DNA of 64,000 bases from Pseudomonadota bacterium (GCA_021808445.1 JAKBBP010000009.1:10277-74276), one strand, 5' to 3'. Counted from the stretch's first letter, positions 2,477-64,000 are shown. Numbers and translations are program-made. The notes: a model not told the origin generated them from the sequence alone.

Positions 2477-4366
2477 ATGAACCGTTACCCGCTGTGGAAG
2501 TACCTCGTGATGGCCGCCGTCGTGGTGGTCGGCATCGTGTATGCGCTGCCGAACCTGTTCGGCGAGGCCCCGGCCGTGCAGATCACCTCGGCGCACGCCG
2601 GGCACGACCAGCCCGACCAGGCGCTGCTGCAGCGCGGTGAGGCCGCGCTGGCCCAGGCCGGCATCCACGCCGACCGCGCAGCCATCGACGGCGCGACCCT
2701 GAACTACAGCTTCTCCGGCACCGACGTGCAGTTGCGCGCGCGCGAGGTGCTGGCGCATGCGCTGAACACCAACCCGCAGTCTCCCTCCTACATCGTCGCG
2801 GTCAACCTGCTCAGCCGCTCGCCCGCCTGGCTGACCGCGCTGCATGCCCACCCCATGTACCTCGGCCTGGACCTGCGCGGCGGCGTGCACTTCCTGCTGC
2901 AGGTGGACATGCAGGCGGCCCTGGAGAAAAAGCTGGATTCGATCGCCGGCGAGCTCAAGTCCTCGCTGCGCGACAAGGACGTGCGCTACAGCGAGCTCAA
3001 GCGCGTCGGCGACGCCGTGCAGATGCAGTTCCACGACCCCGAGATGTTCCAGGCCGCGCTTCCGGTGGTCCGGGCCAACGCGGGCAATGCCCTCATCGAC
3101 GCCGACGCCGCCGCCGGGACCATCGCGCTGCGCCTGAGCCCCGCGACCATCCAGCAGACCGAGGATTACGCGATCAAGCAGAACATCACCACGCTGCACA
3201 ACCGGATCAACGAACTCGGCGTGGCCGAGCCCGTGATCCAGCAGCAGGGCAGGGACCGCGTGGTGGTCGAACTTCCCGGCATCCAGGACACCGCCCGAGC
3301 CAAGGACATCCTCGGACGCACCGCCTCGTTGGAGGTCCGCATGGTGGACGACAGCCCGGCCGCGCTCAGCGCGCTGGCGGGCAAGGGGCCCGCGCCCGAG
3401 GGCGACCAGAAGCTCTACGACCGTTCCGGCAACGCGCTGATGGTCAAGAGCGACGTGCTGCTCACGGGACAGGAACTGACCGATGCGCAGCCGGGCTTCG
3501 ATCCTCAGACCAACCAGCCGGCGGTGTTCCTCACCCTGGATTCGCGTGGTTCGCGCATCTTCGCCGATCTCACGCGCGCCAACGTTGGCAAGCGCATCGC
3601 CATGGTGCTCATCGACCGCCACCAGGCCCAGGTGGTGACCGCCCCGGTGGTACGCAGCGAGATCGACGGCGGCCGCGTGCAGATCTCCGGCAGCATGACC
3701 GTGCCGGAGGCCAATGACATCGCGCTGCTGCTGCGCGCCGGCGCCCTGGCTGCGCCCATGCAGATCATCGAGGAGCGCACCATCGGCCCCAGCCTGGGAC
3801 GCCAGAACATCGCGCAGGGCTTCCACTCGGTGACCTGGGGCTTCCTGGCCATCGTCGCGTTCATGTGCGTGTACTACCTGCTGTTCGGCGCGGTCTCCTC
3901 GATCTCGCTGGCGGTGAACCTGCTGCTGCTGGTGGCGCTGCTGTCGATGCTCCAGGCCACGCTGACCCTGCCCGGCATCGCCGCCATGGCCCTGGCGCTG
4001 GGCATGGCCATCGATTCCAACGTGCTGATCAACGAGCGCATCCGCGAGGAGCTGCGCAACGGCGCCGGCGCGCAGGCGGCGATCGCCGCCGGCTACGCGC
4101 GCGCCTGGGCCACCATCCTGGACTCCAACGTCACCACGCTGATCGCCGGCCTGGCGCTGCTGGTGTTCGGCTCCGGCGCGGTGCGCGGCTTCGCCATCGT
4201 GCACGTCCTGGGCATCCTCACGTCGATGTTCTCGGCGGTGTTCTTCTCGCGTGGACTGGTCAACCTCTGGTACGGCCGACGCCGGCGCCTGCAGTCGGTG
4301 TCCATCGGCCAGGTGTGGAAGCCCGGCGCGACCCCGTCCGACAAGGCGCCCGCGGGCAAGTCCTGA
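2477..4366 (+). CDS. secD: Protein translocase subunit SecD
   Basis: LGLDLRGGVHFLLQVD, RINELGVAEP, IDSNVLINERIREE, TILDSNVTT. Confidence 0.97.
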   Translation: MNRYPLWKYLVMAAVVVVGIVYALPNLFGEAPAVQITSAHAGHDQPDQALLQRGEAALAQAGIHADRAAIDGATLNYSFSGTDVQLRAREVLAHALNTNPQSPSYIVAVNLLSRSPAWLTALHAHPMYLGLDLRGGVHFLLQVDMQAALEKKLDSIAGELKSSLRDKDVRYSELKRVGDAVQMQFHDPEMFQAALPVVRANAGNALIDADAAAGTIALRLSPATIQQTEDYAIKQNITTLHNRINELGVAEPVIQQQGRDRVVVELPGIQDTARAKDILGRTASLEVRMVDDSPAALSALAGKGPAPEGDQKLYDRSGNALMVKSDVLLTGQELTDAQPGFDPQTNQPAVFLTLDSRGSRIFADLTRANVGKRIAMVLIDRHQAQVVTAPVVRSEIDGGRVQISGSMTVPEANDIALLLRAGALAAPMQIIEERTIGPSLGRQNIAQGFHSVTWGFLAIVAFMCVYYLLFGAVSSISLAVNLLLLVALLSMLQATLTLPGIAAMALALGMAIDSNVLINERIREELRNGAGAQAAIAAGYARAWATILDSNVTTLIAGLALLVFGSGAVRGFAIVHVLGILTSMFSAVFFSRGLVNLWYGRRRRLQSVSIGQVWKPGATPSDKAPAGKS

Positions 4367-4403
4367 AGCCCGCGACCGTCCAGCCTTCGACCAGGAGATC
4401 CTG

Positions 4404-5357
4404 ATGGAGTTCTTCCGTATCCGCCGCGACATCCCGTTCATGCGCTATGCGCCGGTGCTGAACGTGATCTCGGCCCTGCTGTTCGTCGCCGCCGTGTTCT
4501 TCCTGTTCACGCGCGGATTGCATCTATCCATCGAATTCACCGGCGGGACGGTCATGGAGGTGCATTACCCCCACGCGGCCGACCTGGATACGGTGCGCGC
4601 GGTGCCCAGGCGCCTGGGCTACGGCGACGTGCAGGTACAGACCTTCGGCAACGCTCGCGACGTGGTGATCCGACTGCCACTGCGGGCCGGCGAGAGCAGC
4701 GTGGCGCAAAGCGACCGCGTGATGAGCGCCTTGAAGTCGGCCGATCCCCAGGCGCAGCTGGCACGCACCGAGTTCGTGGGGCCGCAGGTAGGTTCCGAGC
4801 TGGCCACCGACGGCCTCAAGGCCCTGGCCTTCGTGATCGCCGGCATCATGCTGTACCTGGCGCTGCGCTTCGAGTGGAAGTTTTCCGTGGCGGCCATCGT
4901 GGCCAACCTGCACGACGTGATCATCGTGCTGGGCTTCTTCGCCTTTTTCCAGTGGGAGTTCTCGCTGCCCGTGCTGGCGGCCGTGCTGGCGGTGCTGGGC
5001 TACTCGGTGAACGAGTCGGTGGTGATCTTCGACCGGGTGCGGGAGAACTTCCGAAAGTACCGCAAGTACACCACGGTGCACGTGATCGACAGCGCGATCA
5101 CCAACACCATCAGCCGCACCATCATCACCCACGGCGCGACCCTGGCGATGGCCTTCTCGATGTTCCTGTTCGGAGGCCCCGCCCTGCATTATTTCGCGCT
5201 GGCGCTGATCATCGGCATCTCCATGAGCATCTACAGCTCCGTGTTCGTCGCCGCCGCGATCGCCATGTGGCTGCGCGTCAAGCGCGAGGATCTGCTCAAG
5301 TCCGGCCCGGGGCGCCCGAAAAACCCCAACGACCCGAACGCCGGCGCGGTGGTCTGA
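4404..5357 (+). CDS. secF: Protein translocase subunit SecF
   Basis: LSIEFTGGT, VGPQVGSEL, GYSVNESVVIFDRVRE; AGGAG RBS before ATG 4404. Confidence 0.97.
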   Translation: MEFFRIRRDIPFMRYAPVLNVISALLFVAAVFFLFTRGLHLSIEFTGGTVMEVHYPHAADLDTVRAVPRRLGYGDVQVQTFGNARDVVIRLPLRAGESSVAQSDRVMSALKSADPQAQLARTEFVGPQVGSELATDGLKALAFVIAGIMLYLALRFEWKFSVAAIVANLHDVIIVLGFFAFFQWEFSLPVLAAVLAVLGYSVNESVVIFDRVRENFRKYRKYTTVHVIDSAITNTISRTIITHGATLAMAFSMFLFGGPALHYFALALIIGISMSIYSSVFVAAAIAMWLRVKREDLLKSGPGRPKNPNDPNAGAVV

Positions 5358-5367
5358 GCCCGCCCCC

Positions 5368-5389
5368 GCCCGCGGCCTGCGCCGCGGGC
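5368..5389 (+). terminator. GC-rich hairpin after secF (no U tract)
   Basis: GCCCGCGGC-ctgc-GCCGCGGGC just after the secF stop. Confidence 0.35.
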
Positions 5390-5401
5390 ACGGCGTGACC
5401 A

Positions 5402-5419
5402 CGTCACGCCGCCGTCACG
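5402..5419 (+). promoter_or_regulatory. 11-bp-period direct repeat, Pho-box/OmpR-family-like
   Basis: GTCACG at 5403 and 5414, followed by TTGACA at 5423. Confidence 0.4.
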
Positions 5420-5477
5420 AGATTGACACCTTTGCGTGCGAGCCTCGCGTCTTCCTTCCAGGACGCGAGCACCGCAC

Positions 5478-6191
5478 ATGCTTCCCACCGATCCTGCGCC
5501 CGGCCCTGCGGGCGCCGGCGAGCCGACCACCAAGCACTCCGTGCTCTATGTCGGCTTCGGCCACTCGGCCGCACGTCCGCTGGACAACTCGCAGGAAGCC
5601 CAGCCTGAAGCCGCCCTGCGGCAACTCGTCGACGGGAGTTCCTGGGCAGTCGTGCTGCGCTGCGCCGAACAGGCGCGCGCCGCCACCGACTGGATCATGC
5701 GCGTACGCCACCACCCCGCGTCCTCGCAGGCGGTGGTGCTGGCGCTGGTCGAGGATCCCGGCGGCCCGCTGGCCCTGCAGGCGCTGCGCGCCGGCGCCGA
5801 CGCCGTCGTCGGCCTGCGCTGCATGCCGGCGCTGCTGCAGGCCCAGCTGGCGCGGCTTCGCCAGCGCGTGGCGCATGAACCCGCGGGCCAGCTGAACGTG
5901 GCCCCCGACACCACGCTGGACGCGCCCACGCGGGAGTTGCGCTGCGGCGACGAATGCCAGGCCCTGCAACCCCAGCTGTTCCGCCTCCTGTGGGCGCTGT
6001 GCGAGCGGCCCGGGCGCGTGCTCAGCCCCGCCAGCCTGCGCGTGGCGCTGGACATCCCGGCACGCGCCGACGCCCAGGCGCTGCATACCGCGGTCGGGCG
6101 ACTGCGCCGGCTGCTGCGCCAGCACGGCCTGGACGCGCATCTGCAGACCCTGCACGGAAGCGGCTACCGCTGGACCGGCACGCCCGACTGA
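5478..6191 (+). CDS. Atypical OmpR-type regulator (degenerate receiver plus winged helix)
   Basis: C-terminal FRLLWALCERPGRVLS...LHTAVGRLRRLL...LQTLHGSGYR; receiver-like ALRAGADAVV without the acidic pocket; start 5478 or 5436. Confidence 0.75.
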   Translation: MLPTDPAPGPAGAGEPTTKHSVLYVGFGHSAARPLDNSQEAQPEAALRQLVDGSSWAVVLRCAEQARAATDWIMRVRHHPASSQAVVLALVEDPGGPLALQALRAGADAVVGLRCMPALLQAQLARLRQRVAHEPAGQLNVAPDTTLDAPTRELRCGDECQALQPQLFRLLWALCERPGRVLSPASLRVALDIPARADAQALHTAVGRLRRLLRQHGLDAHLQTLHGSGYRWTGTPD

Positions 6192-6258
6192 ACTCCCCGG
6201 GGTGCATTTCGCCGGGAAACATTCCCGAACAACTCCGACAGGCCCGGTGAGATTTCGG

Positions 6259-6277
6259 ACAGGTTGACGCAACCTGT
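6259..6277. promoter_or_regulatory. Perfect palindrome upstream of the TonB-dependent receptor
   Basis: ACAGGTTG-acg-CAACCTGT. Confidence 0.5.
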
Positions 6278-6385
6278 TCATCACGAGCGGCCGTTGCAAT
6301 AGCGTCCAAGGTTGCGAGCGTGAATGCGCGCATCGACGACCAGGGCCTGAGAGCCCCCCGAATTCCAACGCCATCCGGAGCTGTC

Positions 6386-8758
6386 ATGAATCACCGCACC
6401 CCACCGCCGGCCCTGCGCCGCAATCTGCTGTCCCACGCCGTGCTGCTGGCGCTGTGCGCCGCACCGGGCGTCGCCTGCGCACAGGCGGCAAGCACCGATC
6501 TGGGCACGGTGCAGGCCGGCGCACAGGCCGCCGGCGGCACCACGGCTGCGAAGACCAGCCAGGAACGAAAGATCAGCAAGAAGCAGGTGTTCAAGTCGGG
6601 GGTGTCCACCACCGTGCTGGACCGCCAGCAGATCCAGACCGCGGGCGCCTTCGGCGGTGCCGCGCAGGCGCTGCAGGTGGCGCCCGGCGTGGCCGTCAGC
6701 GGCTACGGCTCCACCGGCAGCACCAAGAACCAGATCAGCGTCAACGGCATCAAGCAGGGCTGGGGCGGATTCAGCGGCTCGCAGATCGACAACGGCTCGA
6801 TTTCCATGACCTTCGACGGGGTGCCCATGGCCAACCCCTCGACCGGTCTGTGGCAAAGCGACCTGGTGCCGCAGCTGGGCATGATCCAGGGCATCGGCGT
6901 GACCTACGGCCCCGGCGAACCCGCGGATCGCTGGTTCAACAACGTGGGCGGCCAGATCGCCTTCGTTCCGGTGCAGCCCACCGACAAGTTCGGCGGCACG
7001 GTCGGGGTGAGCGTGGGCAGCGACAGCGCGCGCAACCTCGACTTCGTGCTCAACACCGGCAGACACGACGGCTGGTCCACCGTGGTCGCCGGCGGCACCG
7101 GCTCGGCCGACAGCTACCGCACGGCCAGCGACGGCTTCAACAGCCACGGCAGCAACGAGGCCTTTTTCCTGAAGACCCGCAAGGACTTCCAGAACGGCAA
7201 TTTCTCGCTCGGCCTGTACAACGCGCGCAGCACCGCCTACCGGCCCTTCGCCGTGCCCACGCAGACCGTGCCCGGCCTGACCCTGGACGGCACCGCGGGC
7301 ACGCCCCTGTACAGCCAGCAGGCCTCGGGCTTCTACAGCACGATTCCCGGCTCGGTGTGGAACAAGAACGACACCAACGAGCTGCGCATCCTCTACGGCA
7401 AGCTCAACGTCGGGCTGGACGACAACGCGCGCCTGCACAACCTGATGTGGTACGAGCTGGAGAAGCGCATCCACGACCACTACAACAACTACGGCCTGAG
7501 CAATCCGGGCAACCTGTACGAGCACAACAACCCGCGCACCAGCAGCTACGGCGACAAGCTGTGGGTGGACGTGGCGCTGCCGCACAACCTGGTGTCGGTG
7601 GGCGGCTTCGTGCTCAAGAGCACCTACAACACACGCAACGCCTTCTACAACCCGGCCGACCTGGTGGGCACCTCGACCACGGTGTACGGCAGCCAGACCA
7701 CGCCCAACGCGCACTACCGCAGCGACTACTTCGACCAGACCGACCTGGCGCTGTTCGCGCAGGACAAGATCAGCCCGATCCGGCGCCTGGACATCACCCC
7801 GGGCATCCGTTTCATCAACTACGACACCGTGTACTCGCCGGCCGGGGCCTCGGACTTCCCGATCTCCTACCAGTACGCCCCCGGCAATGATCAGGGCAGT
7901 CAGCCCGGCTCGACCGCCAGCCATCACAAGATCGAGACCTCGATCAGCGCCAACTACCGCGCCCTGCCCTGGCTGGCCCTGTTCGGCAACTTCGCCCAGG
8001 CCTACAAGGAACCCCAGGTCGGCGGCGGCGGCGGCCTGTTCCAGAGCACCGCGCCCATCTACAACCTGGAAAAGAGCACGGACTACACCCTGGGCTTCAA
8101 GATGCACGTGCGTCGCGCCCAGTACCTGCACGACTTCCTGTTGTCGGTCTCGTACTACCACCTGCACTTCCAGAACCAGTACATCCCGCTGAGCGACGCC
8201 AACGGCAATTACATCGGCGACGCCAACGGGGATTCGACCTACCACGGCCTGAACCTGTCGCTGTCCGACGAGGTCGCCTACAACCTGGACGTGTTTGCCA
8301 ACGCCAACTTCGAGAAGGCGGTGTTCGACAACTACGTCACCGGGGGGACCAGCTACGCCGGCCTGCCGGTGTCGAACGTACCCGACAAGACCTTCACGGT
8401 CGGCGCCAACTACAAGGTCTACGGCGGTGGCGTGCTGTGGGTGCCCGGCATCAACTACCAGTACACCGGCGCGCAGTACATGTGGAGCGACCAGAGCAAC
8501 TCGCCCACCAACCAGAAGGCCCCCGCCTACGGGCTGTGGAACCTCACGCTGGACGGCACGGTGCCCATGCACGACGCCACCATCACCGACCTGAAGTTCC
8601 ACCTCGGGGTGCTCAACGCGACCGACAAGCAATACAACAACAGCGAGTTCATCAGCTTCCCCGGCGACTGGCTGGGCGGGAACACCACCGGCACCTATGT
8701 CCTGGGCATGCCGGGTGCCCCGCGCACCTTCTACGCCGGACTGAGCGCCGACTTCTAA
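6386..8758 (+). CDS. TonB-dependent outer-membrane receptor
   Basis: Signal peptide, plug region (AAQALQVAPGV...DGVPM), beta-barrel ending PGAPRTFYAGLSADF; adjacent exbBD-tonB; GGAG RBS before ATG 6386. Confidence 0.92.
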   Translation: MNHRTPPPALRRNLLSHAVLLALCAAPGVACAQAASTDLGTVQAGAQAAGGTTAAKTSQERKISKKQVFKSGVSTTVLDRQQIQTAGAFGGAAQALQVAPGVAVSGYGSTGSTKNQISVNGIKQGWGGFSGSQIDNGSISMTFDGVPMANPSTGLWQSDLVPQLGMIQGIGVTYGPGEPADRWFNNVGGQIAFVPVQPTDKFGGTVGVSVGSDSARNLDFVLNTGRHDGWSTVVAGGTGSADSYRTASDGFNSHGSNEAFFLKTRKDFQNGNFSLGLYNARSTAYRPFAVPTQTVPGLTLDGTAGTPLYSQQASGFYSTIPGSVWNKNDTNELRILYGKLNVGLDDNARLHNLMWYELEKRIHDHYNNYGLSNPGNLYEHNNPRTSSYGDKLWVDVALPHNLVSVGGFVLKSTYNTRNAFYNPADLVGTSTTVYGSQTTPNAHYRSDYFDQTDLALFAQDKISPIRRLDITPGIRFINYDTVYSPAGASDFPISYQYAPGNDQGSQPGSTASHHKIETSISANYRALPWLALFGNFAQAYKEPQVGGGGGLFQSTAPIYNLEKSTDYTLGFKMHVRRAQYLHDFLLSVSYYHLHFQNQYIPLSDANGNYIGDANGDSTYHGLNLSLSDEVAYNLDVFANANFEKAVFDNYVTGGTSYAGLPVSNVPDKTFTVGANYKVYGGGVLWVPGINYQYTGAQYMWSDQSNSPTNQKAPAYGLWNLTLDGTVPMHDATITDLKFHLGVLNATDKQYNNSEFISFPGDWLGGNTTGTYVLGMPGAPRTFYAGLSADF

Positions 8759-8840
8759 GCGCCCATGGGGCCGCGCGGCGGGCCGGTTGCGGCCCCGCTG
8801 GCGCGGCCCGAGTCCTTGAGAGCCCACAGGAGCACCGCTC

Positions 8841-9560
8841 ATGATCTCCCTTCAGACCATCACCGATGCCGCGCAGAAATCCGGCGGCATCCTCTACATC
8901 ATGGCGCTGCTGCTGCTGGTGGCGCTGGCCGTGGCCATCGAGCGCTTCTGGGCGCTCGGCCGCATGCAGTCCCAGTGCCTGCGCTGGGTGCGCGAACTCA
9001 AGGCCCACGGCCATGTGGACACCAGCCTGCTGCACGAGCGCCTGCAGGGAGATGCGAAATCTCCCGCCGCGCAAGTCGTGGCCGTGGCCTTGAGCCACGA
9101 CCTGGGAGACACGCTGGACCATTTCAGCGATCGCCTGGAGGAGGCGGTGATGGACCAGGCGCCCCAGGTCGACCGCGGCCTGTGGATGCTCGACACCATC
9201 GTCACCCTGGCGCCGCTGCTGGGCCTGCTGGGAACCATCGTGGGCATGTTCAACACCTTCCAGGCGCTGTCCCACCCGGCCGCCGCCACCCAGGCGGTCA
9301 CGGGCGGGGTGGGCGAGGCCCTGCTGGCCACCGCAGCGGGCCTGTTCATCGCGGTGCTGGGCCTGGTCGCGTTCAACGCCCTGCACCAACGCGTGCGCCT
9401 GGTCATGCACCAGCTCGAGCGCATCAAGCTGATGCTGTCCAACCGCATGTATCCCCATTACCGTGGCTCGCAGCAGGCCGCGCGGGAGGCGCGCGACGCG
9501 GCCATGCGCCGCGCCGGCGCATCCGCCCCGCCTCCCGTCGCCTCGCCGCTGCTGCAGTAA
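8841..9560 (+). CDS. exbB: ExbB/MotA/TolQ proton channel
   Basis: LDTIVTLAPLLGLLGTIVGM...GVGEALLATAAGL. Confidence 0.92.
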   Translation: MISLQTITDAAQKSGGILYIMALLLLVALAVAIERFWALGRMQSQCLRWVRELKAHGHVDTSLLHERLQGDAKSPAAQVVAVALSHDLGDTLDHFSDRLEEAVMDQAPQVDRGLWMLDTIVTLAPLLGLLGTIVGMFNTFQALSHPAAATQAVTGGVGEALLATAAGLFIAVLGLVAFNALHQRVRLVMHQLERIKLMLSNRMYPHYRGSQQAAREARDAAMRRAGASAPPPVASPLLQ

Positions 9561-9611
9561 TCGCCCCGTAACGGACATCGTGAACGCGGGCAGCTCCGGC
9601 CGCCCGCTTGC

Positions 9612-9641
9612 GCCACGGCCTCGCTGTGGCATCCTTTTTTT
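9612..9641 (+). terminator. Intrinsic terminator-like hairpin between exbB and exbD
   Basis: GCCACGG-cctcg-CTGTGGC then ATCC and T7. Confidence 0.45.
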
Positions 9642-9652
9642 CCGACTCACCC

Positions 9653-10054
9653 ATGCGCTACTTCGAAACCCGCAAGGCCCGCATCGAGATCATTCCCATG
9701 ATCGACATCATGTTCTTTCTGCTGGTGTTCTTCATCATGGTGACCCTGCGCATGATCCCCGCCGACGGCATCGCCTCGCGACTGCCGACCAGCTCCACCG
9801 CCAAGACGCTGGCGCCCCCGCAGGTGACGGTGGTGGTCGACCGCGCGGGCGTGATCCACGTGGGCGCCCTGCAGCTCGATGAACAGCAGCTCACGAGACT
9901 GCTGGAGAACAAGCAGGACCCTTCGCATCTGCAAGTCGTGCTCGCCGGGGACCGTCACACGCCGCTGCAGTTGCTCATGCGCGTGATGGACGCATGCCGG
10001 CGCGCCGGCGTCACCCGCATCGGGCTGGCCGCGCAGCAGGCGAGCGGATCGTGA
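9653..10054 (+). CDS. exbD: ExbD/TolR biopolymer transport protein
   Basis: IEIIPMIDIMFFLLVFFIM; start ATG 9653. Confidence 0.93.
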   Translation: MRYFETRKARIEIIPMIDIMFFLLVFFIMVTLRMIPADGIASRLPTSSTAKTLAPPQVTVVVDRAGVIHVGALQLDEQQLTRLLENKQDPSHLQVVLAGDRHTPLQLLMRVMDACRRAGVTRIGLAAQQASGS

Positions 10055-10803
10055 GCGCCTTGGCGAGGCCCGGCGCAGGGGCTCGGGACATGGCCCTGCC
10101 CGACGACTCCTGGGAGGAGCCTGGCGGCCGCGGCCGCTGGCCCGTGGCGCTCGCGCTGGCCGTGTTGATCGAGGCCACGCTGCTGGCTGCGCTGGCCTGG
10201 CTGGGCACCCACCAGGCGGCTCCGCCTCCGCCGCCAGTGGAAATCACGCTGAGCCAGCCCAAGCCCCTGCCCAAGCCCCTGCCTAAACCGCTCACGCCCA
10301 AGCCGCCACCGCCCAAGCCCAAACCCCAACCCAAGCCCCAGCCCAAGCCGAAGCCTCGTCCGCTGCACCCGCTTCCCAGGCCGCTGCCCCCGCCGCCTCA
10401 ACCGCGCGCGCTCATCCCGCCGCCGTCGCCCCAGCCTGCCGCCAGGCCGGCGATGCCGGTGGCGCCGCCGCCTCCGCCACCTCCGGCACCGCGGCCGCAC
10501 CCCGATCTGGCGGCCACGCGCCTGAGTTTCGAGGGCGCGCTGCGCGAGGCCATCCAGGCGGCAGTGCGTTTCCCCGAGGCCGCGCGCCTCATGCATGTGG
10601 GCGGGCGCGTGCTGGTCAGCTTCGGGTTTCTCGACGGCAAGGTCAGCCAGGTACGGGTCGCCCAGTCCAGCTCGGTGCCCATGCTCGATGCCGCGGCCCT
10701 GGCCGCGGTGCGCGAGGCACCCTACCCACCCACGCCGGCCGCGCTGGCCTCCCAGCCCATGCGTTTTCGCATCTGGGTCCGTTTCCATCTCGAAGACCGC
10801 TGA
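10051..10803 (+). CDS. tonB: Energy transducer TonB
   Basis: N-terminal TM, Pro-Lys repeats, C-terminal domain (FPEAAR...SSSVPMLDAAAL); GTG overlaps exbD stop, ATG 10090 is the alternative. Confidence 0.88.
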   Translation: MSALARPGAGARDMALPDDSWEEPGGRGRWPVALALAVLIEATLLAALAWLGTHQAAPPPPPVEITLSQPKPLPKPLPKPLTPKPPPPKPKPQPKPQPKPKPRPLHPLPRPLPPPPQPRALIPPPSPQPAARPAMPVAPPPPPPPAPRPHPDLAATRLSFEGALREAIQAAVRFPEAARLMHVGGRVLVSFGFLDGKVSQVRVAQSSSVPMLDAAALAAVREAPYPPTPAALASQPMRFRIWVRFHLEDR

Positions 10804-11795
10804 TGATCCGACTCGCCTTCGTCCTTCTGCTCTGCGCGCTGTCCCTGGCCACGGCCCGGGCGCGCCCCCTGACGGTGTATGCCGCCTTCGGCTACGACCG
10901 TGCCGTGGCACAGGCCTTCACCCGCAGCACTGGCATCGCCGTCGACCTGGTCCACCTGAGCACCGGCCCCCTGCAGGCACGCGTGCAGGCCGAAGGCGCC
11001 AGGCCGCAGTGGGACGTGCTGTGGTTCGATGGGGACATGGCCATGCGCGACATGGCCGCTCGGCATCTGCTGGCCTGCGGCTGGCTCCCCGCGCTGGACT
11101 ATGACGCGCAGGGACGCGCCCTGCTGCCCGCCGATCGCTGCTATCTGCCGGTGGGCCTGACCTACGCGGGAGCCCTGCTGGTGAACACGCGGCGCCTGCA
11201 CCCGGTTCCTCGCAACTGGGCGGACCTGCTGGCGCCGAGCCTGCGCGGCAAGGTGGGCATGAACAATCCGGCCATCTCCGGCCCCACCTTCCCCTTCGTG
11301 GCAGGCATCCTGCAACACGATGGCATGCGCGCCGGCCAGGCCTGGTTCGAGCAACTGAAGGCCCATGGACTGAAGGTGTATCCGACCAACAGCGTGACCC
11401 TGCGTGCCCTGCAGTACGGTCAGATCGACGTGGCCGTGGTGCAGAGCTCGGCCGCGCTGGGCTTCGCACAACGCCAGCCGGGGCTGCGCATCGTCACCCC
11501 GCATCCCGTGGCCGAGCTGCCGTCGGACATCGCCATCGGGGCCCAGGTGCGCGGGCCCGAGCTGCAGCAGGCCCGGCGCTTTGTCGAATTCGTGTTGTCA
11601 GCGGCGGGCCAGCGTGCGATGCAGCATGGCGACCCCAGCGCGGATTCGAACTACCAGCCGCTGCTGCGCGGCGTCGCGCCACTGCCGGCGGTGGCGAGCC
11701 TGAAGCCGCGCGATGCCCAGCGCCTGGATCCGGGCCTCTGGGGCGCGCGCGAGGCCGCCGTGGACCTGTGGTTCAGCCAGCACGTACTGCATTGA
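10803..11795 (+). CDS. ABC substrate-binding protein (AfuA/PhnS/FbpA-like cluster)
   Basis: Signal peptide; LSTGPLQARVQAEGARPQWDV, MNNPAISG. Confidence 0.85.
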   Translation: MIRLAFVLLLCALSLATARARPLTVYAAFGYDRAVAQAFTRSTGIAVDLVHLSTGPLQARVQAEGARPQWDVLWFDGDMAMRDMAARHLLACGWLPALDYDAQGRALLPADRCYLPVGLTYAGALLVNTRRLHPVPRNWADLLAPSLRGKVGMNNPAISGPTFPFVAGILQHDGMRAGQAWFEQLKAHGLKVYPTNSVTLRALQYGQIDVAVVQSSAALGFAQRQPGLRIVTPHPVAELPSDIAIGAQVRGPELQQARRFVEFVLSAAGQRAMQHGDPSADSNYQPLLRGVAPLPAVASLKPRDAQRLDPGLWGAREAAVDLWFSQHVLH

Positions 11796-13549
11796 GCGCT
11801 CCCAGGACCTGGCTGCCCCTTGCACGGCGCGAGTTCGCGACCGAGGGCGCAGGCCTTGCAACCCCGGGCTCGGGGCGTGGCGCCGCCTTGCGGCGCATGC
11901 TCCGGCGCAGCTGCCAGCGTAGCGGCGGCGCGCTGGGCCCCGCGCTGCTCGCGCTGGCCGCGCTGGCCCTGTGGGGCTGGCCGCTCGGCGGATTCCTGGG
12001 CCAGGCCCTGCTGCCCGGCTTGTTGCGTGGCGGCCTGCATCCGAGCCTGGCCGCCTTCGGTCAGGCCTGGGCCGACGGCGGCGCCGGGGCGCTGCGCAAC
12101 AGCTGGCTGATCTCCATGCTGGCGAGTCTGCTCGCGCTGCCGCTGGGGGCCTGGCTGGCCTGGCTGCGCGAGCGCAGCCTGCTGGCGTGGCGGGGCTGGA
12201 TCGAAGCCGGCGTATGGCTGCTGCTCGTGCTCCCCGGCTATTTCGTCGCCTCGGGATGGATGTTGCTGGCCGCGCCGGTGGGCCCCCTGGCGCACTGGCC
12301 CTGGCTGCTGGCTCGCGCACAGGATCTGCTGGGGCCGCCAGGCATCGTCATCAGCCTGGCCTTCAAGGCGCTGCCCTACACCTTCCTGGCCCTGCAACTC
12401 AGCCTGCGCGCCATGTCGGCGGCGCCGCAGGAAGCCGCGCGCGTGCTCGGCCTGGGAAGGATGCATCGCCTGCGCCTGGCCCTGCAGGCACTGCTGCCGG
12501 CCCTGGCCGCCGGCTTCGCCGCCGCCTTCGCCGAATCGGCCAGTGACTTCGCCGTCGCCGCCACCCTGGGCGCGGGCAGCGGCACGATGATGGCCACCTA
12601 TGCCATCCAGCAGTCGGTGGCGGCGATGCCGGTGAACTTTCCGGCCGCGGCGGCCGGCTCCTGGATGCTGCTGGGCCTGGTGGCGCCCGCCTTGTGGCTG
12701 CAGGCGCAGGCGCGCCGCCGCTCGGTCGCCGCGCGCAGCGTGGGCTCGCGCCACCGCCCCGCGACACCCCGAGCGCTGAGCCCCGGACAGACCCTGGCCC
12801 ATGGCTGCGGCGCGGCCCTGCTGGGCCTGCTCGCGCTGGGGGTGCCCTTGTTCAGCGCCACCAGCCTGGCCTTGGGAGGCATCGGCCACGGGCACAGCTT
12901 CACGCGAGCCGCCGCGCAGGTGCTTCCGGCCTTCGGCTACTCGCTGCGCATGGCCCTGCTGGCCGCCAGCGCCGCCACCGCGCTGGCGTGGCCGATCGCT
13001 CGGGCGCTGGCCGCCGGCAGCCGCCTCGGGCGCTTCGTCGACCTCGGGCTCACGGCGGCCATGGCGCTGCCCGGCATCGTGCTGGCGGCCGCCTATGTGC
13101 AGATGTACAACCTGTCGGTCACGCCCTGGTATGGCGGCAGCGGGCTGCTGGCCATGGCCTACGTCGCGCTGGCGCTGCCGGCCGCGACCCGCCTGCTGCA
13201 GGGACCGGTGGCACAACTGCACGGCAGCCTGGGCGAGGCCGCACGCGTGCACGGCCTGTCGCGCCTGCAGGCGCTGCTGCGCGTGGAATGGCCGCTGCTC
13301 GCTCCGGCCCTGGGCGCCGCCTGGTTGATGGCCGCGCTGCATGTGGCCTTCGAACTTCCCGCATCGCAGCTGCTGTATCCGGCAGGGCATGCGCCGCTGG
13401 CGGTGGCCTTGCTGAACGCCGCCTCGGGCTTTCAGCTGCGCCTGCAGGCGCGACTGCAATTGCTGGGCATCGCGCTGCTGCTCGGCTTCGCGGCGCTGGC
13501 GCGCTGGACCTTCGCACGCGCGGCCCGGCGCCTGGGAGCCCCGCGATGA
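11792..13549 (+). CDS. ABC permease, duplicated domain (FbpB/AfuB type)
   Basis: Two EAA loops (EAARVLGLG, EAARVHGLS), about 12 TM; start uncertain (TTG 11792 overlapping SBP stop, or ATG 11897). Confidence 0.85.
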   Translation: MSAPRTWLPLARREFATEGAGLATPGSGRGAALRRMLRRSCQRSGGALGPALLALAALALWGWPLGGFLGQALLPGLLRGGLHPSLAAFGQAWADGGAGALRNSWLISMLASLLALPLGAWLAWLRERSLLAWRGWIEAGVWLLLVLPGYFVASGWMLLAAPVGPLAHWPWLLARAQDLLGPPGIVISLAFKALPYTFLALQLSLRAMSAAPQEAARVLGLGRMHRLRLALQALLPALAAGFAAAFAESASDFAVAATLGAGSGTMMATYAIQQSVAAMPVNFPAAAAGSWMLLGLVAPALWLQAQARRRSVAARSVGSRHRPATPRALSPGQTLAHGCGAALLGLLALGVPLFSATSLALGGIGHGHSFTRAAAQVLPAFGYSLRMALLAASAATALAWPIARALAAGSRLGRFVDLGLTAAMALPGIVLAAAYVQMYNLSVTPWYGGSGLLAMAYVALALPAATRLLQGPVAQLHGSLGEAARVHGLSRLQALLRVEWPLLAPALGAAWLMAALHVAFELPASQLLYPAGHAPLAVALLNAASGFQLRLQARLQLLGIALLLGFAALARWTFARAARRLGAPR

Positions 13550-14643
13550 ATGCCCTCGAACTGATCGGCGTGCGCAAACACTTCGGCGGGCATGCGGCCT
13601 TGAGCGGCCTGGATCTGCAGGTCGAGGCCGGGCGCATCGTATGCCTGCTCGGCGCATCCGGCTCGGGCAAGACCACCTTGCTGCGCATTGTCGCCGGGCT
13701 GGAAAGCCCCGACGACGGCACCGTGCGCATCGCCGGGTTGACGGTGGCAGCTCCAGGACAGGCGCCGCTGGCCCCGGAGCGCAGGGGACTGGGCATGGTG
13801 TTCCAGGACTACGCGCTGTGGCCGCACCTCAGTGCGCTGGACAACGTGGCGCTGCCGCTGCGGGCCCGGAGCCAGCCGCGGGCTGCGGAACAGGCGCTGG
13901 ACATGCTGCGCCGCGTGGGCCTCGAAGCCCAGCGCGACCGGCGCCCGCACGAACTCTCCGGCGGGCAGCAGCAGCGCGTGGCCCTCGCGCGGGCGCTGGC
14001 GGTGCGCCCGCGCCTGCTCCTGTGCGACGAGCCCCTGTCCAACCTGGACGCCGGCTTGCGCGAGGAACTGCGCGACCTGATCGGCGGCGTGGTGCGCGAG
14101 CATGGACTGTCGGCTCTGTACATTACCCACGACCATCGTGAGGCCTTTGCGCTCGGTGACCAGGTCGGTATCCTGGACGCTGGCGTGTTGCGCCAGATCG
14201 ATGCGCCTCGCCGCCTGCTGGCGAGCCCCTGCGACGAGCAGGTCGCGCGCTTCGTGCACGCGCCGGGGCCCTGGACGCTGCGCCGCGCGCATGCCACGCT
14301 GCGGGCCCCGTGGGGGCCCTTGCCTCCCGAGTCCGCAGGCCGGGGCGGCGACGGCGCACGGCTGTACCTGCCCGGCGCGGCGCTGCGCGCGGCCGACGGT
14401 CCGGCACGCGAAGGCGAGCGCATGGTGACGGCGCAGGTCTTGCGCTGCGTGGCCACGCCTCGCGGCGCCGAGCTGCAGGTCACGCTGCACGGCGTGGCGC
14501 TGCGGGTGATCAGCCCTGCATGGCATGCGCCGGGCGACCCTGTGGACCTGTACCTGGACCTGCGACAGGCGCTGATCTACGACGACGCACCCGCAGCCCA
14601 GCGGGCCTGCAACGACCAACCCGAAACGGAGAAGCAGATTTGA
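13546..14643 (+). CDS. ABC ATP-binding protein
   Basis: Walker A GASGSGKT, LSGGQQQR, CDEP; ATGA overlap with permease. Confidence 0.93.
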   Translation: MNALELIGVRKHFGGHAALSGLDLQVEAGRIVCLLGASGSGKTTLLRIVAGLESPDDGTVRIAGLTVAAPGQAPLAPERRGLGMVFQDYALWPHLSALDNVALPLRARSQPRAAEQALDMLRRVGLEAQRDRRPHELSGGQQQRVALARALAVRPRLLLCDEPLSNLDAGLREELRDLIGGVVREHGLSALYITHDHREAFALGDQVGILDAGVLRQIDAPRRLLASPCDEQVARFVHAPGPWTLRRAHATLRAPWGPLPPESAGRGGDGARLYLPGAALRAADGPAREGERMVTAQVLRCVATPRGAELQVTLHGVALRVISPAWHAPGDPVDLYLDLRQALIYDDAPAAQRACNDQPETEKQI

Positions 14644-15386
14644 TGAATTGGACACATTGGGGCGCTGCGGGCGCGATTTTCGCGGCCAGCGCCGTGGAAT
14701 GGGTGGAGGCCTTCACGATCGTGCTGGCCGTCGCCCTGAGCATCGGCTGGGCGCGCGCCACCAGCGCGGCGATCAGCGCGCTGGCCGTGGTGAGCCTGCT
14801 CGTGGCCGCGGGAGCCGCCGGACTGCGCTGGATCGACGGCGACATGCAACTCATGCGCGCCGCCATCGGCGTGTTCCTGCTGCTGTTCGGGTTGCGCTGG
14901 TACGTCAAGGCCGTGCGGCGCTACGCCGGACGCACCCGATTGCACGACGAACTCGAGGAATTCCGCGAAACTCGAGAGGCCCTGGATCACGCGGAGCTGC
15001 GCGCGGCCTGGCTGGTGGCTTTCAAGGGCGTGCTGCTCGAAGGCCTGGAAGTGTGGCTGCTGGTCGTGGCCATGGGCCACGGCCTCGACCTGGGCCAGTC
15101 GGCCGCGGCCGCGGTACTGGCGCTGCTGGTGGTGGTGCTGGCAGGCATGGCGCTGCGCGCGCCGCTGAGCGCGGTTCCGGAGAACACCCTGAAATTCCTG
15201 GTGGCCTGCGCCTTGCTGGCCTTCGGCAGTTTCTGGAGCCTGGCCGGCGTGCTGGGCGAAACCGCGGCCTGGCCCCTGGGAGACCTCAGCCTGCCGCTGC
15301 TGTTCCTCATCTACGCGGTCTGCGGCCGCCTGCTGGGCGCGCATCTGCGCCTGCCCGCCGCGACTGCCGTCGGGAGCCAGGCATGA
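14643..15386 (+). CDS. COG4280-like membrane protein
   Basis: Hydrophobic, two acidic motifs AVEWVEAFTIVLA and VLLEGLEV; start overlaps ATPase stop. Confidence 0.7.
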   Translation: MNWTHWGAAGAIFAASAVEWVEAFTIVLAVALSIGWARATSAAISALAVVSLLVAAGAAGLRWIDGDMQLMRAAIGVFLLLFGLRWYVKAVRRYAGRTRLHDELEEFRETREALDHAELRAAWLVAFKGVLLEGLEVWLLVVAMGHGLDLGQSAAAAVLALLVVVLAGMALRAPLSAVPENTLKFLVACALLAFGSFWSLAGVLGETAAWPLGDLSLPLLFLIYAVCGRLLGAHLRLPAATAVGSQA

Positions 15387-15547
15387 AGAAACTGCTGCAA
15401 TTGGTGTTCGGGGACTGGCGCAACGCCGGGGCGGTGGCCGCCTCGGCCCTCGCGGCCTACGGGGCGGCGCGAGCCTGGCCGGGCGTGGGTGCCTGGGTCC
15501 TGGTGCCCGCGCTGCTGCTGGCCGCGTGGTGGCAGGCCTCGGCCTGA
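15383..15547 (+). CDS. 54-aa hydrophobic membrane protein
   Basis: ATGA overlap with upstream gene; MKKLLQLVFGDWRNAG...; two hydrophobic segments. Confidence 0.65.
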   Translation: MKKLLQLVFGDWRNAGAVAASALAAYGAARAWPGVGAWVLVPALLLAAWWQASA

Positions 15548-15603
15548 TTCAGGCCTCGGCCAGCGCGAGTGCCCGATGCAGCGCGGGGCACTCGGCGCCC
15601 GCT

Positions 15604-16029
15604 TCAAGCCACCCGCAATCCTCCGCTGCCCGGCGTGCTCGAACGGCCGGAGGGCTGCCCCTCGGCGTCCAGATCGAGCATGCAGGCCTGCACCGTCTCG
15701 AGGTTGTTGTCGCGCGCGAAGCGCAGCACGAACTGGTAGGCCATGGGCTCGACATCGGCCAGCTCGCGGCTGACCACCACCGCCCGCACCCCATCGACCA
15801 GCGTGGGCATGCACAGCGGCGAGTAGCACAGATGGTCTTCGGCGTGGCCCGCCCCTACCGGGCGAAAGCGCGACATCACGCCGGCCAGGCGTTCCGCCCA
15901 GTCGCTGGGACGGAAGGCTCGTCCTTCGTGCGTGCGCCCCAGCACCAGGATTTCTCCAGGCTGGAGGTCACGGTTCAAGGCCCGTTGCACGGCGCGTTGT
16001 ACGGCCGCCGGATCGGTGGGATCAAGCAT
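15604..16029 (-). CDS. DUF3579-like protein
   Basis: GRTHEGRAFRPSDWAERLAGVM; start ATG 16029. Confidence 0.75.
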   Translation of the reverse strand: MLDPTDPAAVQRAVQRALNRDLQPGEILVLGRTHEGRAFRPSDWAERLAGVMSRFRPVGAGHAEDHLCYSPLCMPTLVDGVRAVVVSRELADVEPMAYQFVLRFARDNNLETVQACMLDLDAEGQPSGRSSTPGSGGLRVA

Positions 16030-16224
16030 CGGAGAAGCCTGCACGAAGGATGGTGTCCAGAACGTATTCTGCGCCTCACCAGCCCCCCTGGCAAACCCTG
16101 AGGCCCGTGGAACCCTCCCTGTCCGCCGCTGCGCAGGGGGACGGGCGCCGTGCGGGGCTACCATCCGTTGCATGCATACGTCGTTTTCCGGCTTTGCTGC
16201 CCGGCCCGCAAGCTCCCGCCGCGC

Positions 16225-16680
16225 ATGAGGGACACACTGAACCAGGGACGCCTGTGGGTGCTGGCCCAGTTCACCCTGGTCGCGCTGATGCTGGCGTGGC
16301 CGGCGCACTGGCGCCTTCCCGCGGCTGCGCTGGGCCTGGGCCTGGCTGCGCTGGCTCTGGGCCTCTGGGTGCTGGCGTGGAACCGCCCCGGCAATTTCAA
16401 CATCCACCCGCAACCCCGGCAGGCCGGGCGCCTGGTCACCGGCGGGCCCTACCGACGCATGCGCCATCCCATGTATACGTCGCTGCTGCTGCTGATGGCC
16501 GCGGTGGCCGTGGCCGCCGCCGACCTGCCCCGGCTGGCGGCCTGGGTGGCGCTGCTGCTGGTGCTGCAGGGCAAGTCGACCATGGAGGAGCGGCTGCTGC
16601 TGCAGCGCTGGCCCGAATACGCCGCCTACCGGGCGCGCACCTGGAAATTCATCCCTCGGCCAGGCCGGCTGGACCCCTGA
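16225..16680 (+). CDS. Isoprenylcysteine carboxyl methyltransferase (ICMT/PEMT) family membrane protein
   Basis: LVTGGPYRRMRHPMY, EERLL...Y..YR. Confidence 0.85.
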   Translation: MRDTLNQGRLWVLAQFTLVALMLAWPAHWRLPAAALGLGLAALALGLWVLAWNRPGNFNIHPQPRQAGRLVTGGPYRRMRHPMYTSLLLLMAAVAVAAADLPRLAAWVALLLVLQGKSTMEERLLLQRWPEYAAYRARTWKFIPRPGRLDP

Positions 16681-17509
16681 GCGCCATGCGCCGCACCCAG
16701 GCGGCGCCTGCGCCCAGCAGGAGCAGCACGCCCCAGCACGCCCCGGGCGCGGGACTTCCCAGCAGGGCCTGCAGCAGCAGGGCCGCACAGGCCGCCAGGG
16801 ACAGGCGCGCCGGCAAGGAGCCCTGAGGCGGCCTGCCGCGCGGAGCGATCCACAGCAGGGAAAGCGCGAGCACGCAGCATCCGACCTGCGCGGCCAGCGC
16901 CCACCACGCGCTGCCCGCCGGGCTGACCAGCCAGTTCTCGCCCGCCACCACGGAGGCGACGGGCAGGATCACGGCGGCGCCGATGAGCTGGTAGAACACG
17001 AACTGCTCGCCCGCGCACTGGTCCAGGCGCGGGTCGCGCAACAGGCGCTGCTGGGCCACCCAGGCCAGTGCCGCGCAGGCGGCCAGGGCCATGCCGGCCA
17101 GCGGCAAGGTGCCAGCCAGCACCAGCATCGCCAGCATGCCGGCCAGCGTCGCCGGCCACGCGCGCAGTCCACCGCGCAGCGCGGCCTGCAGCAACAGCGC
17201 GCCGGCGCTGAACTCCACCGCGGCGGCGGCGCCGATCCGGGGAACGGCCAGGTACAGCAAGGCCATGCGGGCGCTGAACAGAAGGCCCAGGCCCATGCCC
17301 GGGGTCAGCGTGGCGTCCTGGGCGAACACCGCGATGGGGCGCCAGCGGGTCCACAGCCACATCAGGAACAGCGAGGCCGTGCTGCTCAGCGTGGCCTGCA
17401 GCAAAGGTGGCACCCAGGGCAGCGCGACCGCCACCGCGACCAGCTGCACGCCCCACAGCATGGCCCCGGCGGCTTCGCCGCGTCCCGCCTCGAGCGAACT
17501 CGCGTCCAT
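16649..17509 (-). CDS. Divergent EamA/DMT family transporter
   Basis: About 9-10 hydrophobic segments; MLWGVQLVAV...PPLLQA, QFVFYQL; downstream of trpE. Confidence 0.6.
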   Translation of the reverse strand: MDASSLEAGRGEAAGAMLWGVQLVAVAVALPWVPPLLQATLSSTASLFLMWLWTRWRPIAVFAQDATLTPGMGLGLLFSARMALLYLAVPRIGAAAAVEFSAGALLLQAALRGGLRAWPATLAGMLAMLVLAGTLPLAGMALAACAALAWVAQQRLLRDPRLDQCAGEQFVFYQLIGAAVILPVASVVAGENWLVSPAGSAWWALAAQVGCCVLALSLLWIAPRGRPPQGSLPARLSLAACAALLLQALLGSPAPGACWGVLLLLGAGAAWVRRMALRGPAGLAEG

Positions 17510-63683: not shown

Positions 63684-64000
63684 GTGAAGCTGTTGCTCGT
63701 GGAAGACGACGAGATGATCGCCGAGGCGGTCAGCACGGCGCTCGGGGATGCGGGCTATGACGTGCAGGTCGCCCGAGACGGCGACAGCGCCAATAGCGCA
63801 CTGCGTGAGCACGCCTACCAGATGGTCCTGCTGGACATCACGCTGCCGCGGGTAGATGGACTGAGTCTGCTGCGCCTGCTGCGCCTTCGAGAAGACTGGG
63901 TCCCGGTGATCCTCATCACGGCACGTCACGAAGTCGTGCACCGGGCCGAGGGCCTGGATCTTGGAGCCGACGACTACGTCGTCAAGCCCTTCGACATCGT
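63684..64000 (+). CDS. Second OmpR-family response regulator, truncated by window end
   Basis: GTG-KLLLVEDDEMIAEAV...LLDITLP...GADDYVVKPFDI; not in ORF track. Confidence 0.9.
   Translation, partial: MKLLLVEDDEMIAEAVSTALGDAGYDVQVARDGDSANSALREHAYQMVLLDITLPRVDGLSLLRLLRLREDWVPVILITARHEVVHRAEGLDLGADDYVVKPFDI

Follow-up and report, generated by a model that had tools for sequence, protein, structure and literature searches.

What does the ten-gene transport locus at positions 5478-15547 of the DNA examined here bring into the cell? The locus lies in a 64,000-nucleotide stretch (hereafter the window, ~70% G+C) from a Thiomonas-like acid-mine bacterium, the assembly of whose genome comprises 3.38 Mb and is 92% complete, and it encodes, in ten co-directional genes, an OmpR/PhoB-type regulator, a TonB-dependent receptor (TBDR), ExbB, ExbD, TonB, a periplasmic substrate-binding protein (SBP), the permease and ATPase of an ATP-binding cassette (ABC) importer, a COG4280 membrane protein and a 54-aa membrane peptide. 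An earlier note on this DNA, made from its sequence alone, had proposed an import system not yet characterised, whose substrate might be a phosphorylated compound and not iron; the first part of that proposal agrees with the literature, in which we found no publication on this locus, on COG4280 or PF16955/OFeT_1, or on Thiomonas in connection with TonB and phosphate, and the second part is supported by the analysis described below. Since the promoter of the locus appears to be of phosphate-starvation type, and its SBP lacks the tyrosines of iron-binding homologues, the system most likely scavenges a phosphate-bearing compound. We therefore regard it as on balance probable that the locus belongs to the phosphate-starvation (Pho) regulon and serves to scavenge a ligand that bears phosphate and may be complexed with metal, and that it is not a Fur-controlled ferric-iron system.

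The first line of evidence is regulatory. The promoter of the first gene carries an array of three half-sites, ACGTCAC-gccg-CCGTCAC-gaga-TTGACAC, at 11-bp phasing. Matches to CYGTCAY-N4-CYGTCAY with no more than one mismatch number only 10 in the whole genome, one of them at this promoter, and phased arrays of at least three units occur at four places, again including this one. Two of the others also precede genes: the second lies in the promoter of an olsB-like GNAT gene adjoining a probable ppx (exopolyphosphatase; N-terminal sequence only), and the third in that of a pair encoding a plcP-like metallophosphoesterase and a GT4 glycosyltransferase (plcP-agt-like). Genes for ornithine-lipid and glycolipid remodelling (olsB and plcP-agt types) are known PhoB targets in other Proteobacteria. 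The fourth array is a tandem 11-bp repeat, (CCTTCATTCCA)n, at contig C18:730-760, that mimics a phased Pho-box array. The genome also has a canonical pstS...phoU-phoB region, and the pstS promoter carries a box with two mismatches (CTTTCAC-caaa-ATGTCAT).

The motif recurs where the locus does. A box with at most two mismatches stands at the same place and on the same strand in 10 of the 12 orthologous loci, in flanks that have diverged, and in some of these it is nearer the canonical form (GTTTCAT-gatg-CTGTCAT in L017, CTGTCAC-gccg-CTGTCAC in L010); three loci that have no regulator gene (L020-L022) carry a two-mismatch box ~126-135 nt before the TBDR gene. Further afield, all three Pho-box matches within 21 kb of a Paracoccaceae locus (L034) fall within the 320 nt upstream of the SBP gene. 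In the actinobacterial loci the PhoP box GTTCACC-N4-GTTCACC is 47-fold (at most two mismatches) or 13-fold (at most three) denser just upstream of the SBP gene than in the remaining 412 kb of these loci, as exemplified by GTTCGCC-aaag-GTTCACC-tcga-CTACACC in L029, and in Alicyclobacillus a weak match, TTHACR-N4-6-TTHACR, one of two in 19 kb, is found 131 nt before the SBP gene. By promoter motif, then, the locus looks like a member of the Pho regulon. As a separate observation, the leader of the SBP gene in Alicyclobacillus tolerans (L055, ~8900-8960) contains a G+C-rich hairpin with TTTTG after it, placed between the start codon and PhoP-like TTTACA repeats; the hairpin has no Rfam match and may be an attenuator.

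The earlier note had seen no Fur box, and this observation is borne out, there being no match with six or fewer mismatches of 19 anywhere in 5300-15700; no Zur or ModE box was found in the window scan, and no Fur, IdeR or Zur box either here or upstream of the SBP gene in 29 other loci. Searches for Rfam elements returned nothing in 4300-17000 at E<=1 save one chance match to a long non-coding RNA, and no riboswitch or other RNA element was detected in seven Gram-positive or other loci.

The regulator encoded by the first gene has PhoB as its best NCBIfam match, at a score far below the cut-off. Alignment with the PhoB of the same genome shows the substitutions D53->R, E9/D10->G/F and K105->L with the winged helix intact, and the orthologous regulators share these pseudo-receiver substitutions. 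As both the phospho-acceptor and acidic pocket residues are replaced, the protein cannot be a conventional response regulator. Its predicted operator lies before the TBDR gene, in a region (GGTGAG-N5-GGACAGGTT-N5-AACCTG..CATCAC..TGCAAT) conserved among otherwise diverged loci, those of T. delicata and T. bhubaneswarensis included; the conserved element sits just upstream of the TGCAAT hexamer and is the likely, though putative, binding site of this dedicated regulator. A candidate sigma-54 promoter before the TBDR gene was rejected by eye, its spacing being unfit.

A partial precedent for this arrangement is the vreAIR / exbB2-exbD2 region of Pseudomonas aeruginosa, which is reported to be PhoB-dependent (PMC4971064, PMC7035377) and likewise to have phased 11-bp Pho half-sites before a regulator of surface or TonB-linked genes. 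The present locus differs from that region as reported in that the secondary regulator is a non-phosphorylatable OmpR-type protein and not an extracytoplasmic function (ECF) sigma factor, and in that the genes controlled make up a complete import pathway.

The second line of evidence is the ligand-binding site of the SBP. The protein has the fold of the FbpA/AfuA/PhnS class (class II, cluster D) and belongs within it to a tyrosine-less clade. Its AlphaFold model (predicted local distance difference test score, pLDDT, 91.6) gives Foldseek template-modelling (TM) scores of 0.81 with P5PA, 0.80 with AfuA bound to glucose-6-phosphate and 0.74-0.75 with FbpA, differences that in part reflect open versus closed conformations. 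In both pairwise and profile alignments a family-invariant V-Q-S-S-A stands at the N-N-Y-Y-W of FbpA and HitA, the segment that contains Tyr195 and Tyr196, so that after Q214 the family has S-S/A for the two tyrosines; this replacement of the FbpA iron tyrosines by an invariant Q-S-S weakens the iron label and supports the earlier suggestion of a cargo other than iron. The position of FbpA His9 is occupied by Gly30. Besides Q214, residues Y31, W70, W74, D76, N155, D281 and E317 of the SBP are invariant. Two anion loops, S-T-G (53-55) and I-S-G-P-T (158-162), are invariant throughout the family, and we take the phosphate-binding loop of FbpA, S139-G140-A141, to be their counterpart. These loops correspond to those that hold Ser37 and Thr150 in AfuA, where these two residues bind phosphate and His205, Asp206 and Glu229 bind the sugar (PMC4546632). 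In the glucose-6-phosphate binders of AfuA type the sugar is contacted by an 'HD' segment (PMC4546632), which is present as such in VcA0625 and AfuA and reads 'SS' (S-S/A) in this family. Given that the same segment is YY in FbpA, HD in AfuA and VcA0625 and QSS here, it seems to act as the switch that sets specificity in this fold, with a version particular to this clade, and the alignments suggest an SBP that no longer coordinates iron and binds a ligand carrying a phosphoryl group.

Such a binding site would also fit a plain organophosphate importer for a sugar phosphate, pyridoxal-5-phosphate, 2-aminoethylphosphonate or a compound of that kind, similar to AfuABC, P5PA or PhnSTUV, to which the COG4280 protein and the peptide would be a passenger module. 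The SBPs of AfuABC, a sugar-phosphate importer (PMC4546632), and P5PA, which takes pyridoxal-5-phosphate (PMC8427247), bind phosphorylated organic compounds, although the systems had been mis-annotated as 'iron' ABC systems; they are the structures most similar to the present SBP (TM 0.80-0.81) and share its Ser/Thr phosphate loops, whose retention favours this explanation, as do the best NCBIfam matches, which are PhnS2 for the SBP, PhnU2 for the permease and PhnT2 for the ATPase. Regulator genes in or beside related cassettes point the same way, with one of the RpiR/SIS (phosphosugar-sensing) type inserted in the Paracoccaceae cassette and GntR/UTRA regulators adjoining five actinobacterial cassettes, and provide a hint of an organic cargo. 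However, the His-Asp pair by which AfuA binds its sugar is Ser-Ser/Ala in this SBP, and AfuABC has no TBDR, FTR1-like partner or known Pho control. The scores for PhnS2 (55.5 bits, cut-off 392.8), PhnU2 (57.5, cut-off 593.3) and PhnT2 (233.7, cut-off 457.7) fall far short, and the genome yielded no PhnJ and no PhnW above cut-off, as a consequence of which 2-aminoethylphosphonate is unlikely. This explanation moreover leaves without account both the strict coupling of COG4280 and the peptide to the ABC genes in three phyla and the restriction of the system to acidophiles, and we consider it rather improbable.

The COG4280 protein of the window scores 17.3 bits against PF16955 (OFeT_1), below the cut-off of 26.9, whilst its relatives, named 'COG4280 domain-containing protein' or 'high-affinity Fe2+/Pb2+ permease', match this family. 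Invariant in the family alignment are E19 and E22 (VEWVEA), E133 and E136 (LEGLEV), an H-D-E loop and a P-E-N-T-x-K motif, and the structural model (pLDDT 82.7) has seven transmembrane helices with ExxE motifs in the first and fourth. Seven transmembrane helices, with ExxE-type motifs in helices 1 and 4, are the layout described for FTR1 and EfeU. Comparison by hhalign with an alignment of FTR1 proteins from related genomes gave a probability of 93.7% (E 1.9e-7) over helices 3 to 5, with LEGLE placed on REGSE. On the strength of the model, the motifs and this profile match, the COG4280 protein together with the peptide is read as a cation permease of the FTR1 superfamily, the former being a predicted distant homologue of FTR1/EfeU. 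It differs from the FTR1/EfeU/FtrC proteins (ILT; PF03239, PF16955) in lacking the Arg of the REXXE motif and in its partners, since no ferroxidase, EfeO, P19 or cupredoxin is encoded here and the 54-aa membrane peptide is found instead. Foldseek found no similar solved structure for the model in the PDB (best TM 0.28), and phmmer against the PDB gave noise only, including a chance PhnG match at E 0.5. A canonical FTR1-family permease with two REXXE motifs is encoded on contig C33:33679-34464, so COG4280 is not the only ILT-type protein of this genome.

The peptide appears in our survey as an obligate partner of COG4280. It carries an N-terminal (F/L)xGD(D/W) motif and, beyond this, hydrophobic stretches that might cross the membrane either once or twice, and its gene is coupled to that of COG4280 by a 4-nt overlap in 20 of 26 loci; in three more the two lie within 2-11 nt, two have a GTG start and one has no such peptide. 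The coupled peptides span Proteobacteria, Actinobacteria and Firmicutes. COG4280 itself is a large family (more than 5,900 matches) that also occurs without ABC genes and is present in 26 of 29 genomes of the window's own genus. Its stand-alone loci share a direct repeat, TCCTGAC-N4-TCCTGAC, found at ~9925-9950 of L004 upstream of COG4280 and at ~4035-4060 of L072 upstream of a TBDR-COG4280 pair, which suggests control by another OmpR-type factor.

The distribution of the genes indicates which of them belong together. Gene positions in other genomes were obtained by tblastn mapping and from the existing gene calls of the encoding contigs. Synteny extends over the entire locus in at least 12 Thiomonas-like genomes, with the full gene string kept in Thiomonas sp. 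FB-6, T. delicata, T. bhubaneswarensis and many acid-mine metagenome-assembled genomes (MAGs) at SBP identities of 61%-92%, and a five-gene core (SBP, permease, ATPase, COG4280 and peptide) recurs at 36-50% SBP identity in Actinobacteria (Streptomyces, Actinacidiphila, Acidimicrobiia and Solirubrobacterales), in the Firmicute Alicyclobacillus tolerans, in one Paracoccaceae MAG and in one unplaced lineage. This synteny, and the conservation of the peptide across phyla, show that the gene arrangement is not due to chance. The neighbourhood survey suggested in the earlier note thus found the core cassette in three phyla, and also phosphoesterase or PhoD genes beside two Thiomonas loci: genes for a PF04185 phosphoesterase, a second TBDR and PhoD come directly after the T. 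bhubaneswarensis locus, and T. delicata has the same PF04185 phosphoesterase and TBDR there. Together with the recurring Pho boxes and the retained phosphate-binding loops, these neighbours support a phosphorylated cargo. In more distant actinobacterial loci (e.g. Acidithrix ferrooxidans) the three ABC genes are present, with no COG4280 match within the DNA fetched. The SBP belongs to a small clade, of 108 clusters (E<=1e-20), that is sparsely distributed, occurring in three of 301 sampled genomes of the order, equivalent to two of 143 genera, and its named carriers are almost all acidophiles or come from acid, iron-rich sites. In the Streptomyces and Actinacidiphila cassettes L026, L028 and L030 we also noted a conserved inverted repeat, CTAACCGTCGTTAC...GACGGTTAG, right before the ribosome-binding site and ~80-150 nt upstream of the SBP start, beside genes for ChrB_N-only proteins.

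For the receptor, a search by sequence found no relative in the PDB. The closest relative encountered here outside the orthologous loci (L072; 43% identity over 792 aa) is encoded directly upstream of a COG4280-peptide pair with no ABC genes, and is closer than the best paralogue in the window's genome (39%). Receptor, ABC importer and COG4280-peptide pair are thus linked two by two in different lineages, an argument that all three handle one cargo or parts of it. Of the three receptor paralogues in the genome, two (29-33% identity) lie on either side of a similar phosphoesterase gene on contig C20. A second cluster (contig C35:73963-79158) begins at 63687-64000 of the window. Its first gene encodes a complete response regulator of the OmpR/PhoB family, and outside the window follow a TBDR 39% identical to that of the locus and an ExbD homologue.

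Several observations weigh against a Pho-controlled system for a phosphate-bearing ligand. With respect to control, the L058 locus has no clear Pho box, nor have the stand-alone COG4280 loci, which lack a Fur box as well, and the Pho-like repeats could instead be an autoregulatory site of the PhoB-like regulator, on which it bears that loci without the regulator nonetheless carry Pho boxes. With respect to the ligand, the best PDB matches of the SBP by sequence are the ferric-binding proteins FbpA and HitA (1e-14 to 1e-24 by phmmer and profile searches), and Asp76 stands at the FbpA iron ligand Glu57, the sole one kept of four. The FTR1-like partner, and the FecI-FecR-TBDR clusters that adjoin stand-alone COG4280-peptide pairs in Steroidobacteraceae-like contigs, point to a metal, classically iron. 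No phosphate-releasing enzyme for an organic cargo is encoded in the cassette, and ChrB_N-only proteins, which adjoin seven actinobacterial cassettes other than the five with GntR/UTRA regulators, hint at another oxyanion.

The observations on ligand and partner are those expected of an acid-adapted ferric-iron importer, in which the receptor would take Fe(III) or an Fe(III) chelate and the ABC importer and COG4280 would provide two parallel iron routes. The SBP would on this account bind Fe3+ through the carboxylates of Asp76, Asp281 and Glu317 together with Tyr31, on the argument that tyrosinates would not hold iron at low periplasmic pH. It is favoured, in addition to the HitA match at 1e-24, the alignment of Asp76 with Glu57, the homology of COG4280 to FTR1 and the FecI-FecR-TBDR neighbours, by the iron-rich acid habitats from which nearly all carriers come and by the JGI label of the SBP, 'iron(III) transport system substrate-binding protein'. 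The overall scheme is also that of FbpABC, HitABC and SfuABC: a class II, cluster-D SBP, a fused permease with 12 transmembrane helices and a PotA/FbpC-type ATPase, with a TBDR upstream of the pathway (TbpA or LbpA in Neisseria) and a conserved synergistic-anion (phosphate) loop in the SBP. Unlike these systems, however, the present one has an SBP without Tyr195, Tyr196 and His9, has Pho boxes and no Fur box, and adds two membrane genes, an ExbBD-TonB set of its own and a pseudo-receiver regulator. Three of the four FbpA iron ligands are thus missing, no Fur or IdeR box occurs in ~30 loci, and Pho or PhoP boxes recur in several lineages. Acid, iron-rich habitats offer soluble iron in plenty, so that a TonB-energised high-affinity route for it would have no obvious use there, and the genome already encodes a canonical FTR1. 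Ferric iron as the cargo proper therefore seems unlikely.

The ChrB_N-only neighbours raise a further alternative, namely that the cargo is a different oxyanion or a trace element in short supply at low pH, for example molybdate, tungstate, vanadate or an anion resembling chromate. SBP_bac_11 (the ModA family) matches the SBP as strongly as SBP_bac_8 does, and the permease resembles ModB and CysT. Nevertheless, the window scan gave no ModE-type box, the regulatory motifs found are Pho-type, and the nearest solved relatives of the SBP are FbpA, AfuA and PhnS and not ModA, which matches at E 9e-6 only; we regard an oxyanion of this kind as very improbable.

The Pho-regulated scavenging system that we favour could operate as follows. 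In phosphate limitation PhoB would, to judge from the motif, bind the three-unit Pho box and turn on the first gene, the non-phosphorylatable PhoB-like product of which would activate the conserved promoter before the TBDR gene; that is, we infer a cascade from PhoB through the pseudo-receiver regulator to the transport operon. The receptor, energised by its own ExbB-ExbD-TonB, would bring the cargo to the periplasm, a role predicted from clearly assigned protein families. There the tyrosine-less FbpA/AfuA-type SBP, for which protein family and binding-site make-up are both evident from sequence, would capture the presumed ligand by its phosphoryl group and pass it to the fused-permease ABC importer. 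Apart from this importer, COG4280 and the peptide would make up a cation permease, which probably handles the metal accompanying the phosphate ligand in acidic, iron-rich water. The new parts of this scheme are the SBP clade, the accessory permease module and the putative Pho control, the combination of a TBDR with an ABC importer being already known.

The cargo could be ortho- or pyrophosphate in complex with Fe(III) or Al(III), or else an organic compound that is phosphorylated. The resemblance of the COG4280 partner to metal permeases leaves room for a metal in what is transported, and an inorganic cargo would call for no catabolic enzyme of its own, in keeping with the lack of such an enzyme in the cassette. 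A more specific, and tentative, possibility is that the system takes up phosphate locked in metal complexes, whether Fe(III)- or Al(III)-phosphate, pyrophosphate or a metal-bound organophosphate. The receptor would then import the intact complex, which would be split in the periplasm, whereupon the ABC importer would take the phosphoryl part and COG4280 with the peptide would move the metal, in or back out. Complexes of the Fe(III)- and Al(III)-phosphate type are the main dissolved phosphorus species in acid, iron-rich water, and a phosphate ligand that travels with metal would cover at once the regulation and gene neighbourhood, the SBP, the FTR1-like permease and the acid, iron-rich habitat.

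The gene calls on which this analysis rests are collected in the table. The earlier note had listed the genes correctly, all on one strand and in the order found here, as Pfam matches and coordinates confirm; its count of eleven becomes ten. The permease is a single fused two-domain protein. Pfam matches name eight of the ten products, leaving the COG4280 protein and the peptide, and those of receptor, ExbB, ExbD and TonB are all above cut-off; the dedicated energiser (exbB, exbD and tonB) and the two extra inner-membrane components (COG4280 and the peptide) that the note had pointed out are present.

Features of the transport locus and its promoters (window coordinates).
Feature	Position	Strand	Basis or remark
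Pho box array, three phased half-sites	5401-5429	+	77 nt upstream of regulator ATG
OmpR/PhoB-type regulator, pseudo-receiver	5478-6191	+	Trans_reg_C E 3.9e-11
Conserved operator/promoter region before TBDR	6238-6300	+	kept in 11 diverged loci
TonB-dependent receptor, 790 aa	6386-8758	+	Plug + TonB_dep_Rec_b-barrel
ExbB	8841-9560	+	MotA_ExbB E 9e-29
ExbD	9653-10054	+	ExbD E 2.5e-27
TonB, Pro-rich linker + TonB_C	10051 (GTG) or 10090 (ATG) to 10803	+	TonB_C E 1e-12
Periplasmic substrate-binding protein	10803-11795	+	SBP_bac_8/11/6/1
Fused two-domain ABC permease, FbpB/PhnU2-like	~11897 (or GTG 11768) to 13549	+	two BPD_transp_1 stretches
ABC ATPase with C-terminal regulatory domain	13546-14643	+	ABC_tran E 4e-35
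COG4280 membrane protein, 247 aa	14643-15386	+	relatives match PF16955 OFeT_1
54-aa hydrophobic membrane peptide	15383-15547	+	conserved partner of COG4280

The 1-4 nt overlaps that had been described from exbD onwards hold at five junctions: 4 nt at exbD/tonB (GTGA, with the GTG start of tonB; the same overlap is called in L002), permease/ATPase (ATGA) and COG4280/peptide (ATGA), and 1 nt at tonB/SBP and ATPase/COG4280. At SBP/permease the spacing depends on the permease start, which is uncertain. A convergent gene follows the peptide gene, and the operon therefore ends at 15547. Between exbB and exbD lies a terminator-like hairpin with a T-run (GCCACGGCCTCGCTGTGGC ATCCTTTTTT; 9612-9640), which could set the ExbB:ExbD ratio; hairpins of this type are no more numerous in the region than in shuffled sequence, so that it may have arisen by chance. 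Downstream of the peptide gene, the 56 nt that separate it from the convergent DUF3579 gene contain an 8-bp G+C-rich inverted repeat with no T-run (GAGTGCCC...GGGCACTC; 15568-15598) that may be a bidirectional terminator. Beyond it, long open reading frames overlap on opposite strands (15604-16788, -, and 16150-16680, +); the minus-strand frame contains the DUF3579 domain (~15687-15951) and the plus-strand frame encodes a PEMT-like phospholipid methyltransferase (16150-16680), and probably both genes are real and the DUF3579 gene is shorter than its reading frame.

If the favoured interpretation is correct, the Pho regulon would gain a complete TonB-energised import pathway, with a non-phosphorylatable PhoB paralogue as intermediate switch, and, if the locus takes up metal complexes, this would be a new mode of phosphorus acquisition and the first function for the COG4280 family. 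COG4280/PF16955, with its thousands of members, and the conserved 54-aa peptide would be given a function that can be tested, and the lesson of AfuABC would apply again, in that FbpA-like SBPs need their ligand residues checked before they are labelled 'iron'. The 'iron(III) transport' genes of acid-mine and acid-soil bacteria would then belong to the phosphate-starvation response, which would change how metagenomes from acid habitats are read for the cycling of iron and phosphorus.

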